Assembly: GCF_000189295.2 (NCBI RefSeq)
Contig: NC_016803.1
Coordinates: 3,090,001 to 3,122,000 of the forward strand
Length of the DNA stretch: 32,000 bases
Source: Pseudodesulfovibrio mercurii
Lineage (GTDB): Bacteria > Desulfobacterota > Desulfovibrionia > Desulfovibrionales > Desulfovibrionaceae
Reading direction: 5' to 3'
Every line of letters starts with the position of its first letter. Position 1 is the stretch's first letter. This document shows, in pieces, positions 26,422-28,808 of the stretch. The position numbers and the translations under genes were made by a program. The notes beneath the pieces are model-generated. The model was not told where the DNA came from. It saw only the letters and a program-made list of their open reading frames with translations, and made no database searches.

Positions 26422-27498
26422 TTAAAATGTTGAATCGTCCAGCCCGTCCCGGCCGACCACCCGCCAGTGCAGGGGAAAGCCCGGATCGAACACGGTCACC
26501 GGGCCGTCGGCGGTCATGATCCGGTCCGGGAAGGCGACCGCCTGTTCGCTCCTGCGGAGGGTGATCCGGGATGAGCTCGCCAGCAGGTTATAAAAGGCCG
26601 GGCCGCTCAGGGCAACAAACGTCTCAAGTTTCTCCAGGCTGGACTCTTCCTCGAAGACGGCCGCCACGCAGGCCAGGGCCGTGGGCGCGTTGAAGATGCC
26701 CGCGCTGCCCGCCGGACGCAGCTTGGCGGCGTCGGGGTGGGGCGCGGAATCCGAGCCGAAAAAGAAGCGGGGGTCGCCGGAGACGGCCGCCCGGCGCACG
26801 GCGCGGCGGTCCTCCGGACTCTTGGCCACGGGCAGGCAGTAGTAATGCGGGTGGATGCCGCCGGACAGGATGTGGCTGCGGGTCAGGACCAGGTGGTGCG
26901 GGGTGATGGTCGCGGCCAGGTTGCGCTCGGCCGAGAGGACATACTCGACCCCCCGGGCCGAGGTGACGTGCTCTATGACGATGCGCAGCTCGGGCAGACG
27001 GCGGCGGAGCGGGTCCAGGACCCGGTCGATGTAGGCCGCCTCGCGGTCGAAGACGTCCACGGCCGGGTCGGTCACTTCGCCGTGCACGGACAGGACCAGC
27101 CCGGTCTCGGCCATGCGCTCCAGGACCGGCATGACCCGGTCCATGTCCCGGACGCCGTTCTCGGAATTGGTGGTGGCCCCGGCCGGGAAGAGCTTCACGG
27201 CCTTGACGAAGCCCGAGGCCACGGCCCGGTCGATCTCCTCCGGGGCGGTGGCCTCGGTGAGATAGAGGGTCATCAGCGGCGTGAAATCGCAGCCCTCGGG
27301 CAGGGCGTCGAGCACCCGCCGGCGGTAGGCGTCCGCCAGGGCCACGGTGGTCGCGGGCGGGACCACGTTGGGCATGACGATGGCCCGGCCGAAGTCGCGC
27401 GCCGTCCATTCGGCCACGGCGCGGAGCATGTCCCCGTCGCGCAGGTGGGCGTGCCAGTCGTCCGGCCGCCGGATGGTCAGTTCCGTCACGGACATCAT
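26422..27498 (-). CDS. pyrC: Dihydroorotase, E. coli-type (class II, homodimeric), about 357-358 aa
   Basis: Colinear with remembered E. coli PyrC: IRRPDDWHAHLRDG, GRAIVMPN, KLFPAGATTNS, HGEV, ATITPHHL, YCLPVAK, GSDSAPH. The ATGATG start overlaps the amidase TGA (ATGA). Confidence 0.9.
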   Translation of the reverse strand: MMSVTELTIRRPDDWHAHLRDGDMLRAVAEWTARDFGRAIVMPNVVPPATTVALADAYRRRVLDALPEGCDFTPLMTLYLTEATAPEEIDRAVASGFVKAVKLFPAGATTNSENGVRDMDRVMPVLERMAETGLVLSVHGEVTDPAVDVFDREAAYIDRVLDPLRRRLPELRIVIEHVTSARGVEYVLSAERNLAATITPHHLVLTRSHILSGGIHPHYYCLPVAKSPEDRRAVRRAAVSGDPRFFFGSDSAPHPDAAKLRPAGSAGIFNAPTALACVAAVFEEESSLEKLETFVALSGPAFYNLLASSSRITLRRSEQAVAFPDRIMTADGPVTVFDPGFPLHWRVVGRDGLDDSTF

Positions 27499-28808
27499 TC
27501 CCCCTCCAGCAGATGGTTGTACAGGACCTCGGCCCCCAGGAGGAAGTCCGCGACGTCCAGGGCCTCGTCCGGGTTGTGCGACCCGTTGCGGTTGCGCACG
27601 AAAATCATTCCTGAGGGCACGCCCGCGTTGGCGAAGACGGCCGCGTCGTGGCCGCCGCCGGACGGCATGACGAAGGGTTCCAGGCCCGTCCGGGCCATGG
27701 CCGCCCTGAGCCCGGCGATGACCTTGCCGTCCATCAGGGCCGGGGCCGTGGACAGCTCGTCGTCCAGGACGAACTCGACCCTCCGGGCCCGCTCCACCTG
27801 GTGCATCTCCTCGCGGAGCATCTCGCGCATGCCGTCCAGGACCGCGCCGCTCTGGCTGCGGCAGTCGAAGCTGAAGGTCACCTTGTCCGGGATGCGTGAC
27901 AGGGAGTTGGTCCTCGGGTCCGTGGAGACCACCCCCGAGGTCAGGACCAGGTCGTCGCCCTTCTGGAGGATGGTCAGCCAGCTGTCGTCCAGCCGGGAGA
28001 GGAGGTCGGCCAGGGCGAAGACCGGATCGCGGCGGTAGGCCCGGGGCACGGCCCCGGAGTGCCCGGCCTCGCCGAGGCAGGTGATCCTGCGGTGGCGGAA
28101 GTTGCCCCGGATGCCCGAGACCACGGCCACGGGCAGACGCTTTTCGACCAGCATGGGGCCCTGCTCGATGTGCAGCTCGACGTATTCGAGCACGGAGGCC
28201 GTGTCCAGCAGCGGGCGGCCCGCCCGGATGGCGTCCACGTCGATGCCGAGGGCGCGCATGTGGCTCTCCAGGGTCCGGCCGTCGTCCCGGTGCACGGCGG
28301 CCAGCTCGGCCCCGGTCAGCTGGCCGGTCAGCCCCTTGGATCCGATGTAGCACGGCCCGAACCAGTGGCTCTCCTCGGCCCGCATGGCGATGCAGCGGAC
28401 CGGGCGGGCGAAGCGTTGTCCGGCGGCCTTGGCCCGGATCAGGCAGAGCAGCCCGGCGGCCACCCCGGCCAGCCCGTCGTAGTTGCCGCCCTGGTGCACG
28501 GAATCCACGTGGGAGCCGACCACGGCGAAGCGCCCGGCGTCCATGTCGTCAGGGAGGGCGAAATGATAGTTGCCGCCCCGGTCCGCCCGGACCGCGAGGC
28601 CCCAGGCCTCGGCCCGTTCGCGCAGGGCCTCGAGGACGCGGGTCTCGGTGGCCGAGTAGGCCGGGCGGCTGATGCCCACGTCGGCCGGGCTCAGGCGGGC
28701 CGCCTCGTCGAAGAGGTCGCGCGCGAAAGCCTCGGCGTCGGGGACGGCCCCCTTGCGGGGGGAATGAGCGGCCATTCCGCTCGGGGCGGATTTCTTCATC
28801 ACTGCCAT
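27495..28808 (-). CDS. M20-family hydantoinase/carbamoylase-type amidase (N-carbamoyl-L-amino-acid hydrolase / allantoate amidohydrolase family), 437 aa
   Basis: Signature VGSHVDSVHQGGNYDGLAGVAAGL. Later HIEQGP, GEAGHSG and SGGGHDA metal/dimerisation blocks, as remembered for AmaB/AllC-type enzymes. Confidence 0.8.
   Translation of the reverse strand: MAVMKKSAPSGMAAHSPRKGAVPDAEAFARDLFDEAARLSPADVGISRPAYSATETRVLEALRERAEAWGLAVRADRGGNYHFALPDDMDAGRFAVVGSHVDSVHQGGNYDGLAGVAAGLLCLIRAKAAGQRFARPVRCIAMRAEESHWFGPCYIGSKGLTGQLTGAELAAVHRDDGRTLESHMRALGIDVDAIRAGRPLLDTASVLEYVELHIEQGPMLVEKRLPVAVVSGIRGNFRHRRITCLGEAGHSGAVPRAYRRDPVFALADLLSRLDDSWLTILQKGDDLVLTSGVVSTDPRTNSLSRIPDKVTFSFDCRSQSGAVLDGMREMLREEMHQVERARRVEFVLDDELSTAPALMDGKVIAGLRAAMARTGLEPFVMPSGGGHDAAVFANAGVPSGMIFVRNRNGSHNPDEALDVADFLLGAEVLYNHLLEGE

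Follow-up and report, generated by a model that had tools for sequence, protein, structure and literature searches.

The closest described counterpart of the pathway proposed here is the orotate fermentation of Clostridium oroticum, for which Lieberman and Kornberg reportedly described ureidosuccinase activity (EC 3.5.1.7) in the 1950s. The reactions of that fermentation and their order are identical to those predicted for the locus studied here, and its orotate reductase is likewise an NAD-linked class 1B dehydrogenase. The organisms differ, however: the known ureidosuccinase activity comes from Clostridia, whereas the amidase clade described below occurs in Proteobacteria and Desulfobacterota. 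Clostridia may use another protein for this reaction, because the homologues that we retrieved from Clostridia and Lachnospiraceae (31-33% identity) had no pyr genes as neighbours. Although the activity was described about 70 years ago, the literature that we could search did not link any gene to it, and a study of reaction modules (PMC4016543) does not treat ureidosuccinase. A candidate clade with a marker residue now makes the gene question directly testable.

Other described systems resemble single parts of the locus. In hydantoin-utilisation clusters a cyclic amidohydrolase is followed by a decarbamoylase, and an equivalent pairing is found here, but with dihydroorotase instead of hydantoinase as the ring-opening partner. 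The L-N-carbamoylases of Geobacillus (3N5F) and Sinorhizobium (AmaB, 8APZ) have the M20 two-domain fold (TM 0.81-0.87) and the metal-binding and catalytic motifs in common with our amidase, but are only 25-30% identical to it. The top sequence match among solved structures is the allantoate amidohydrolase AllC of Escherichia coli (1Z2L/4PXD; 168 bits, about 30% identity). Both enzymes share the fold and the metal site, but the context of AllC is purine metabolism whereas that of our amidase is pyrimidine metabolism.

The gene row in the Pseudodesulfovibrio mercurii window

The window, a stretch of 32,000 nucleotides of P. mercurii (contig NC_016803.1, positions 3,090,001 to 3,122,000), carries on its minus strand the genes dctPQM, amidase, pyrC, pyrE, s107 and pyrK-pyrD, in that order, with a divergently oriented XRE-type regulator upstream. 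As far as s107, intergenic gaps are short or the genes overlap. The end of the window truncates the XRE/HTH_31-type regulator after its first 40 codons (31881..32000, plus strand). Their translation, MISQSESIAHLGERLRAYRIGKNLTPENVAQRTGISRAA, resembles the N-terminus of a 294-aa HTH_3/HTH_31 protein of the related locus L001, and a homologous regulator was found in 17 amidase-linked loci. The AT-rich region between regulator and dctP (31722..31880, minus strand) contains a promoter-like site, with repeated or palindromic operator-like motifs (TTTGAGATACGTATCAAATCTGAGATA) directly 5' of a TTGACT -35 box. Sigma-70-like matches between 22.8 and 32 kb were restricted to this region upstream of dctP. 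The palindromes TCTCA-N4-TGAGA or TATCA-N3-TGATA also adjoin TTGAC in L001, L003, L005, L011 and L022, and we infer that those in the window are putative operators.

The first three genes of the row, all on the minus strand, encode a TRAP transporter: the solute-binding protein DctP (30690..31721; Pfam DctP, 279.8 bits), the small membrane subunit DctQ (30112..30663; Pfam DctQ, 99.5 bits) and the large membrane subunit DctM (28832..30112; Pfam DctM, 357 bits; TIGR00786, 403 bits). The start codon of dctM overlaps the stop codon of dctQ by 1 nt (TAATG). The orthologues in L001 measure 426 aa (DctM) and 169 aa (DctQ), and the true start of dctQ may lie at about 30621.

The amidase gene (27495..28808, minus strand) is an open reading frame of 437 aa with an ATG start; its product is an M20 carbamoylase-family amidase and a candidate N-carbamoyl-L-aspartate amidohydrolase (ureidosuccinase). 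At its junction with pyrC (26422..27498, minus strand), which reads GGGGGAATGATGTCC, we recovered the stop/start overlap claimed in an earlier note on this DNA: the amidase TGA (27497..27495) overlaps two in-frame pyrC ATGs, by either 4 nt (ATGA) or 1 nt (TGATG). According to gene calls, amidase and pyrC also overlap in related loci, by 4 nt in Breoghania (L003) and by 1 nt in L001. The overlap and its recurrence indicate that the two genes share one operon. The note had further concluded that they are co-expressed stoichiometrically, a conclusion that goes beyond the overlap itself, since in bacterial operons genes are joined in this way more often than in any other.

PyrC scored 406.6 bits against the pyrC_dimer equivalog TIGR00856 (cut-off 293) and 375 bits against the dihydroorotase of E. 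coli. The alignment with the latter retains the motifs DDWHxHLRDG, KL(F/Y)PA, VHGE, EH(V/I)T and DSAPH, and the active-site residues of dihydroorotases (HxH, carboxylated Lys, His, His, Asp) all align. Score and active site thus agree with the earlier description of this gene as a bona fide PyrC, and place it among the type II (dimeric, E. coli-like) dihydroorotases. The next gene, pyrE (25706..26401, minus strand), encodes an orotate phosphoribosyltransferase (OPRT) of 231 aa, with 395 bits against the equivalog NF001729 (cut-off 245) and 322 bits against the OPRT structure 4OHC. Compared with its counterparts in the Breoghania and Desulfocapsaceae clusters, it shows 81-88% identity.

Downstream of pyrE lies s107 (25366..25689, minus strand), which encodes a conserved, amidase-linked, all-helical protein of 107 aa. 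A spacer of 311 nt separates it from pyrK and contains, 3' of s107, a GC-rich hairpin that we read from the sequence (GCTCCCTCCCG-N9-CGGGAGGGAGC; 25300..25330, minus strand). Its stem is kept in L001 while the flanking sequence has diverged; the hairpin is presumably a terminator or processing element. The row continues with the two subunits of a class 1B dihydroorotate dehydrogenase, namely the electron-transfer subunit PyrK (FAD/Fe-S, NAD-linked; 24275..25054, minus strand; PF10418 and NF000799 region) and the catalytic subunit PyrD (23376..24278, minus strand; 413 bits against NF005574, cut-off 269). The ATG start of pyrK, with GAGGGGGA 5' of it, is shared with L001, and the start of pyrD overlaps the stop of pyrK (ATGA).

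At the end of the row we read a terminator-like hairpin with a T-run (AAAAAAGCGGCCC...GGGCCGCTTTTTT; 23300..23340, minus strand). A pattern scan for terminators gave no more matches than in shuffled sequence, and missed this hairpin probably owing to a loop of more than 8 nt. Rfam searches gave no match inside the cluster; the matches outside it were 23S, 5S and a tRNA. In the remainder of the window many long open reading frames had no match in Pfam scans; most of these are wrong-strand frames of a GC-rich genome.

Conserved linkage and the proposed breakdown of orotate

We placed the amidases of 82 homologous loci in a neighbour-joining tree, and counted those with PyrD, i.e. the gene for an NAD-type dihydroorotate dehydrogenase, within 10 kb. 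PyrD was present in 23 of the 30 loci of one amidase clade, versus only one of the 52 loci outside it (p = 3e-13). The PyrKD-linked clade comprises Desulfobacterota, Alpha-, Beta- and Gammaproteobacteria and Acidobacteriota, and the linkage of amidase, PyrK and PyrD is kept across at least five bacterial classes or phyla. All 23 linked amidases have an arginine at position 305, within the motif S-R-I-P, where the family otherwise has N-V-I-P. In contrast, 55 of the 56 other, non-Arg sequences have Val, Lys, Ile, Thr or Ala at this position (p = 4e-16), and the remaining one (L083) is the one with a PyrD-like match nearby. Arg305 is hence a candidate specificity marker of the PyrKD-linked amidases.

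Gene content varies around this core. The Breoghania locus is arranged as a regulator followed by DctPQM-PyrK-PyrD-amidase-PyrC-PyrE, and its proteins are 59-81% identical to those of the window. The transporter may be of the TRAP or MFS type or an ABC system. In Pseudomonas (L024) a dihydroorotase of a non-orthologous type (NF006688, 699 bits) follows the amidase, in the position of pyrC.

The earlier note had proposed the amidase as a ureidosuccinase, solely on the grounds of its coupling to pyrC. As a candidate argued from context, this proposal gained support from an orotate-type TRAP importer upstream and pyrK/pyrD in the same row, and also from the conserved amidase-PyrK-PyrD linkage and the non-orthologous dihydroorotase that fills the slot in Pseudomonas. 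The context expected of a ureidosuccinase, an NAD-linked dihydroorotate dehydrogenase with a dihydroorotase alongside, is present in the window. We consider the amidase the best candidate for this enzyme, and regard it as probable that it catalyses the final step of an orotate-utilisation locus, in which orotate would be imported, reduced, ring-opened and decarbamoylated to aspartate.

The dihydroorotate dehydrogenase reaction of class 1B enzymes is reversible. In the proposed pathway, DctPQM would import orotate, as suggested by the 62% identity of DctP to an orotate-bound binding protein. NAD-linked PyrK/PyrD would then run in reverse and reduce orotate to L-dihydroorotate, which PyrC, a type II dihydroorotase by sequence, would open to N-carbamoyl-L-aspartate; for both enzymes the direction is the one that the pathway implies. 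Finally, the amidase would hydrolyse N-carbamoyl-L-aspartate, its presumed substrate, to L-aspartate, NH3 and CO2, and this hydrolysis of the carbamoyl group would make the whole sequence irreversible. Part of the imported orotate would be diverted by PyrE to OMP for pyrimidine salvage. The XRE-type regulator presumably holds the amidase off when orotate is absent, because the amidase would otherwise drain the cell's own carbamoyl-aspartate.

Several observations counted against orotate breakdown, among them that PyrE has no role in it and that the 311-nt hairpin spacer parts PyrK/PyrD from the genes upstream. We also considered whether the PyrKD of the window represents a catabolic lineage specific to such clusters, and rejected this, as their closest relatives outside the clusters stand in standard biosynthetic operons. 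These relatives, with 72-78% identity, lie within canonical pyrC-pyrF-carAB-pyrKD-pyrE operons. A further observation against breakdown is that PyrK and PyrD are, by sequence, of a biosynthetic-type lineage, and the pyr genes of the window could double as housekeeping genes.

The lineage of PyrKD bears on the strongest alternative, according to which the locus serves salvage and biosynthesis only. The TRAP transporter would bring in orotate or carbamoyl-aspartate as a pyrimidine source, PyrC, PyrE and PyrKD would work in the biosynthetic direction, and the amidase would act on another carbamoyl compound or trim excess carbamoyl-aspartate. Consistent with this, PyrE is a bona fide OPRT and, after PyrD, the most often conserved neighbour of the amidase (23 loci). 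Moreover, all that a nested Burkholderiaceae subclade has retained is pyrE beside the amidase, and residue 305 is Val there. This subclade shows that linkage to pyr genes is in part non-catabolic. However, salvage of orotate requires just a transporter and PyrE, and PyrE is absent from the PyrK-PyrD-amidase loci L002, L008, L024, L033 and L084. The amidase frequently overlaps with PyrD, as in L003, where the overlap measures 4 nt. Salvage also leaves unexplained why Pseudomonas has an extra dihydroorotase and why Alpha- and Gammaproteobacteria carry an additional NAD-type dehydrogenase. Alpha-, Beta- and Gammaproteobacteria normally make pyrimidines via a quinone-dependent class 2 dihydroorotate dehydrogenase, and an extra NAD-type enzyme in these groups therefore fits catabolism. 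All in all, we find salvage and biosynthesis alone unlikely.

If the locus does break down orotate, the 'pyrD/pyrK/pyrC' copies in amidase-linked loci may serve catabolism instead of biosynthesis. The conserved, putative orotate-utilisation locus, comprising a regulator, an importer, a reductase, a ring opener, a decarbamoylase, OPRT and the small protein s107, was found in many marine and anaerobic bacteria. This distribution points to orotate as a source of nitrogen and carbon that is exchanged in such communities, and possibly as an electron sink.

The amidase and its defined relatives

Profile, motifs and fold all assign the amidase to the M20 hydantoinase/carbamoylase family. It scored 261.8 bits against the NCBIfam model TIGR01879 'hydantoinase/carbamoylase family amidase' (cut-off 204), 79.5 bits against Pfam Peptidase_M20 (PF01546; cut-off 24.6) and 23.2 bits against M20_dimer (PF07687; cut-off 21). 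Residues H100, D111, E145, E146, H213, H387 and H411 align with those of the AllC motifs GSHxD, GNxDG, EE, ELHIEQG and SHNP, and are at least 85% conserved across the 82 homologues; in the M20 family these motifs supply the ligands of the dinuclear metal site and the catalytic Glu. An AF2 model (pLDDT 85.4) showed the two-domain fold, with a catalytic and a dimerisation domain, and Foldseek aligned it with 3N5F, 1Z2L and 4WJB (TM 0.81-0.88). The best fold matches were the L-N-carbamoylase 3N5F and AllC 1Z2L, at no more than 30% identity. Source databases label the homologues 'N-carbamoyl-L-amino-acid hydrolase' or 'Zn-dependent hydrolase'.

Clear orthology to a defined enzyme, which the earlier note had named as speaking against its proposal, was not found: among the NCBIfam equivalog models of defined amidases (AllC, ErtE and others), none reached its cut-off. 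AllC was rejected on a score of 199.5 against TIGR03176 (cut-off 597.75) and on differences in motif and context; the amidase also stayed below every cut-off of the other AllC equivalogs (NF006768/70/73/74/75), and the locus holds no allantoinase or ureidoglycolate genes, its neighbours being TRAP and pyr genes. The N-carbamyl-L-glutamate amidohydrolase ErtE was rejected on score (255.8 against NF058540, cut-off 520), motif and context. Cut-offs, motif and context likewise spoke against a beta-ureidopropionase or beta-alanine synthase of the M20 type, to which identity is 22-26% (1R3N, 8C46). PyrD scored 413 on the dihydroorotate dehydrogenase equivalog versus 154 on PreA (PreA cut-off 335), and PyrC exceeds the cut-off of the dihydroorotase equivalog; the linkage to dihydropyrimidinase and dihydropyrimidine dehydrogenase expected of a beta-ureidopropionase is thus not seen. 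No dihydropyrimidinase or hydantoinase gene was present in the locus.

It could still be argued that the amidase belongs to an ordinary defined subfamily, as an allantoate amidohydrolase, beta-ureidopropionase, broad L-N-carbamoylase or carbamoyl-glutamate amidase, and that its adjacency to pyr genes is incidental. The names of its homologues point that way, and so do its best solved relatives, AllC and L-N-carbamoylase (E-values 1e-44 to 1e-48; TM-scores 0.81-0.88). Yet its identity to every solved enzyme is at most 30%, all equivalog cut-offs were missed by wide margins, and the locus is without the allantoinase, dihydropyrimidinase or hydantoinase genes of those pathways. In place of N-V-I-P, the motif that binds the substrate carboxylate in AllC and the carbamoylases, the amidase has S-R-I-P, with an insertion of two residues ahead of it. 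Moreover, the PyrKD linkage is clade-wide. We therefore judge this explanation improbable, even more so than salvage. If the clade consists of ureidosuccinases, a more accurate name could be given to many proteins now annotated as 'Zn-dependent hydrolase', 'allantoate amidohydrolase' or 'N-carbamoyl-L-amino-acid hydrolase'.

Predicted orotate binding and the small protein s107

The best PDB match of DctP was 4NN3 (428 bits, 62% identity over 324 residues), the TRAP protein Desal_2161 of Maridesulfovibrio salexigens (Vetting et al. 2015). The next match reached 157 bits, and hence this protein is far nearer to DctP than the other solved TRAP binding proteins. The 4NN3 structure carries bound orotic acid (PMC11668362). 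By sequence, DctP belongs with the orotate-binding TRAP solute-binding proteins of the 4NN3 group, and we predict that it binds orotate. Amidase-linked loci yielded 12 TRAP binding proteins, each of them 60-65% identical to 4NN3; the M. salexigens protein itself was absent among the best 120 DctP matches listed. A related pyrimidine carboxylate or nucleoside instead of free orotate, such as orotidine or directly imported dihydroorotate, with the amidase still acting on carbamoyl-aspartate, would suit L002 and L084, which have an NMT1-type ABC transporter, a PNP_UDP_1 nucleoside phosphorylase and a phosphopentomutase-like gene in the absence of TRAP, but is very improbable for the window, where the transporter is of the 4NN3 type and the cluster showed no gene for a phosphorylase.

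Beyond orotate breakdown by the locus, a wider joint reading seems possible, though doubtful as a whole: the Arg305/PyrKD-linked clade would represent the long-missing ureidosuccinase gene, within a widespread and regulated orotate-catabolic locus of marine Alphaproteobacteria, sulfate reducers and others, and with s107 as an undescribed helical partner that is fused to the C-terminus of the amidase in some genomes. The s107 protein had no match in Pfam or NCBIfam, and its single-sequence structure model was weak (pLDDT 64). Across 1.84 billion proteins its homologues form only 52 representative clusters, and in 12 loci a homologue stands where s107 does here. Furthermore, two natural full-length amidase::s107 fusions were found (P0401 and P0404). 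Since s107 is sometimes fused to the amidase, it probably acts together with it, and might gate the amidase such that biosynthetic carbamoyl-aspartate is spared.

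The proposed orotate gene row of P. mercurii and its putative regulatory elements

The amidase (437 aa; 28808..27495, minus strand) is 100% identical to the corresponding P. mercurii protein at NCBI. It is part of a row of minus-strand genes that begins with the binding protein, small subunit and large subunit of a TRAP transporter, i.e. dctP (31721..30690), dctQ (30663..30112) and dctM (30112..28832). Downstream of the amidase are pyrC (27498..26422), encoding a type II dihydroorotase, pyrE (26401..25706; OPRT equivalog, 395 bits vs 245) and s107 (25689..25366), an ORF encoding a 107-aa protein without a family. 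A 311-nt spacer containing a GC hairpin separates s107 from pyrK (25054..24275), which encodes the electron-transfer subunit, and pyrD (24278..23376), which encodes the catalytic subunit of a class 1B dihydroorotate dehydrogenase (equivalog, 413 bits vs 269). A terminator-like hairpin (23340..23300, minus strand) closes the row.

At the amidase/pyrC junction the coding strand reads GGGGGAATGATGTCC, and the amidase TGA overlaps the pyrC start by 4 nt or 1 nt, depending on the ATG chosen. This bears out the overlap described in an earlier note and, because of it, the two genes are assigned to one operon. The stoichiometric co-expression that the note had also read from it holds as far as a shared operon; fixed stoichiometry does not follow, as an overlap cannot show it. 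The neighbour is indeed a bona fide PyrC-type enzyme, scoring 406.6 bits with TIGR00856 (cut-off 293) and 375 bits against E. coli dihydroorotase, with every active-site motif retained.

The sole sigma-70-like promoter matches of the region lie in an AT-rich stretch 5' of dctP, beyond which a divergent XRE/HTH_31 regulator is cut by the window end after its first 40 codons. An operator-like TTTGAGATACGTATCAAATCTGAGATA within this stretch (31722-31880) stands immediately 5' of a TTGAC -35 box, ahead of the transporter genes. Operator-like palindromes of the form TCTCA-N4-TGAGA or TATCA-N3-TGATA, likewise 5' of TTGAC, occur in the homologous loci L001 (6924-7085) and L003 (Breoghania; 5054-5276), and in the regulator/dctP spacers of L005, L011 and L022. 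The divergent regulator probably binds at such palindromes.

The hairpin in the s107/pyrK spacer (25300-25330, minus strand) is GC-rich, has 11 bp and carries no T-run. It is kept in L001, where the remaining spacer diverges, and the predicted folding of the whole 311-nt spacer is somewhat more stable than that of shuffled sequence (z = -2.6). The hairpin may end the upstream transcript or make it more stable and, given the spacer and this conserved hairpin, pyrKD may form a separate transcript.

A tRNA-Leu(CAA) gene on the plus strand (23207-23293) lies just past the pyrD terminator. Elsewhere, the window contains the 3' part of a 23S rRNA gene (1-2568), a 5S rRNA gene (2635-2749), and amidinotransferase/arginine-deiminase-like, DUF1786, DUF554, LysR regulator and aldehyde dehydrogenase genes (2715-3896, 8888-9994, 17684-18466, 19640-20566, 20631-22160); for these five, no link to the orotate cluster was evident. 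Several long ORFs without a family match are probably wrong-strand ORFs.

Conserved linkage and the probable transported substrate

The nearest amidase homologues are found in two other Pseudodesulfovibrio (84-86% identity). The next-nearest share 60-65% identity, and those with a name are mostly Alphaproteobacteria (Roseibium, Breoghania, Nitratireductor, Cohaesibacter, Rhodobacteraceae). In Breoghania sp. L-A4 the order is a regulator and then DctP-DctQ-DctM-PyrK-PyrD-amidase-PyrC-PyrE, with identities to the window proteins of 59% (DctP), 62% (DctQ), 69% (DctM), 64% (amidase), 60.5% (PyrC) and 81% (PyrE), but only 33% for PyrK and 43% for PyrD.

A genome scan limited to a single genome for each species gave 80 loci whose amidase homologues are 29-62% identical, and their neighbourhoods were probed by tblastn with the window proteins. 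Homologues above ~45% identity were almost always flanked by PyrK, PyrD and PyrE, and often by PyrC and a TRAP system of the 4NN3 type as well; the same probing found no pyr neighbours beside homologues below ~44%. We clustered all adjoining ORFs of 33 loci, and recovered PyrD and PyrE at 23 loci each, PyrK at 22, the XRE regulator at 17, DctM, DctQ and DctP at 14, 13 and 12, s107 at 12, and PyrC at nine plus the window. An MFS transporter took the place of the TRAP system at seven Beta- and Gammaproteobacteria loci. By neighbour joining, the PyrKD-linked amidases group into one clade, in which 23 of the 30 members are linked to PyrD versus 1 of the 52 loci outside (Fisher p = 3e-13).

In Pseudomonas sp. 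ANT_H12B (L024) the row MFS-PyrK-PyrD-amidase is followed by a 448-aa dihydroorotase of another type (11230-12576; PRK09236 type, NF006688 699 bits vs 535). Because this unrelated enzyme replaces type II PyrC, the arrangement argues that dihydroorotase activity itself is required next to the amidase. A Burkholderiaceae subclade nested in the orotate-linked clade (L010, L013, L020, L064; including Zwartia vadi) has kept the pyrE-amidase pair alone, with no PyrKD within 10 kb. It has Val, not Arg, at position 305 of the amidase, and may have changed function.

Of the solved structures, 4NN3 is by far the nearest to the window DctP (428 bits; 62% identity across 324 residues), the next match reaching 157 bits. 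4NN3 is described as a TRAP binding protein of Maridesulfovibrio salexigens crystallised with orotic acid (PMC11668362), and PMC5812351 also lists orotic acid as one of the TRAP ligands that Vetting et al. 2015 identified. In amidase-linked loci, each of the 12 TRAP binding proteins shares 60-65% identity with 4NN3. This relationship points to orotate as the imported substrate. Some amidase loci without TRAP (L002 12132-16186; L084 1-4804; also L006 and L008) have an ABC transporter of the NMT1 type, within which a PNP_UDP_1 nucleoside phosphorylase gene is embedded; L084 additionally has a 'Metalloenzyme' (phosphopentomutase-like) gene. Such gene sets hint that a pyrimidine nucleoside, for instance orotidine, is taken up.

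The amidase as a ureidosuccinase candidate

Profile, motifs and fold all place the amidase in the M20 carbamoylase family. It matches Pfam Peptidase_M20 and M20_dimer, scores 261.8 bits with the NCBIfam subfamily 'hydantoinase/carbamoylase family amidase' (cut-off 204), and retains the residues of the metal and catalytic motifs (H100, D111, E145/E146, H213, H387 and H411). Its AF2 model (pLDDT 85.4) matches L-N-carbamoylase 3N5F, AllC 1Z2L/2IMO and several uncharacterised Burkholderia amidases (TM 0.81-0.88), at identities never exceeding 30%. None of the NCBIfam equivalog models for defined enzymes reached its cut-off. AllC (199.5 vs 597.75), ErtE (255.8 vs 520) and the beta-ureidopropionase group were all rejected on cut-off, motif and context, and the best overall model, the PRK12891 'Zn-dependent hydrolase' subfamily, also stayed below its cut-off (378 vs 461).

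Throughout the clade, S-R-I-P following a two-residue insertion stands where the family has a conserved N-V-I-P, whose Asn we take to bind the substrate carboxylate in the AllC and L-carbamoylase structures. Arg305 is invariant in 23/23 PyrKD-linked amidases and in 55 close homologues, whereas Lys, Val, Ile, Thr or Ala occupies the position outside this group (association with PyrKD linkage, p = 4e-16). An extra Arg beside the carboxylate-binding position would fit a substrate with a second carboxylate, such as carbamoyl-aspartate.

With gene identities, order, overlaps, conserved linkage and this marker residue as observations, we infer the amidase substrate, flux direction and regulation as follows. 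DctPQM would import orotate, PyrK/PyrD would reduce it with NADH to L-dihydroorotate, PyrC would open the ring to N-carbamoyl-L-aspartate, and the amidase would release L-aspartate, NH3 and CO2, a hydrolysis that would pull the pathway forward. The PyrK/PyrD and PyrC reactions are reversible and belong to known enzymes. PyrE has no catabolic role, and would form a salvage branch from orotate to OMP. Since the amidase, left on, would break down the pyrimidine precursor that the cell makes for itself, the regulator would keep it off unless orotate is present; regulator and operator-like palindromes in several loci fit this need. Alpha-, Beta- and Gammaproteobacteria synthesise pyrimidines via a quinone-dependent class 2 dehydrogenase. 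There, orotate reduction, i.e. catabolism, best accounts for an additional NAD-linked class 1B enzyme encoded beside an orotate importer and a decarbamoylase. The analogy with hydantoin clusters proposed earlier is apt in that the amidase would act like their decarbamoylase, the difference being that its partner here is a dihydroorotase.

The finding involves no new principle. Orotate fermentation by Clostridium oroticum, described in the 1950s, follows the same route and ends with ureidosuccinase (EC 3.5.1.7). However, the amidase homologues retrieved from Clostridia/Lachnospiraceae are 31-33% identical, and tblastn with the window proteins found no pyr neighbours beside them; the classical clostridial enzyme may be a different protein. 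The literature searched, which did not include the main TRAP paper, where the neighbourhood may already be remarked on, assigns no gene to ureidosuccinase. For this activity the amidase is a well-supported, testable candidate, and the predicted orotate-utilisation locus around it is widespread and includes a probable partner protein, s107.

s107 and the origin of the pyr genes

The s107 protein is predicted to be all-helical, and no Pfam or NCBIfam family was found for it. Homologues occupy the same position at 12 loci, following pyrE or the amidase, and only 52 related clusters turned up when 1.84 billion representative proteins were scanned in full. Two of these, P0401 (538 aa) and P0404 (556 aa), are full-length natural fusions with s107 at the amidase C-terminus, and P0386 is a fragment of this type. 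The P0404 locus (L084 8001-9671) has a regulator beside PyrK-PyrD-amidase::s107. Because of these fusions, s107 appears functionally tied to the amidase.

The window PyrK/PyrD do not share the origin of the copies in alphaproteobacterial clusters. Outside the cluster, PyrD is closest to proteins (L085, L086, L087; 72-78% identity) encoded in Bacillus-like pyrC-pyrF-carA-carB-pyrK-pyrD-pyrE biosynthetic operons. The dehydrogenase pair used by the Desulfobacterota version of the cluster is thus of a biosynthetic type, and in P. mercurii it may be housekeeping. Some evidence speaks for an accessory pair. A 79% relative (P0130) is the cluster copy of Desulfocapsaceae locus L004. Leaving aside the 90%-identity cluster to which the window PyrD belongs, no Desulfovibrionaceae are among the named PyrD matches in the best 120, which suggests that the genes are accessory in P. 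mercurii.

PyrE (25706-26401, compared with L003 12398-13093 and L004 from 12335) is much better conserved than the proteins encoded around it. It shares 81-88% identity between Desulfobacterota and Alphaproteobacteria, versus ~60% for the other cluster proteins. Between two Pseudodesulfovibrio it is 98% identical, versus 84-95% for the others.
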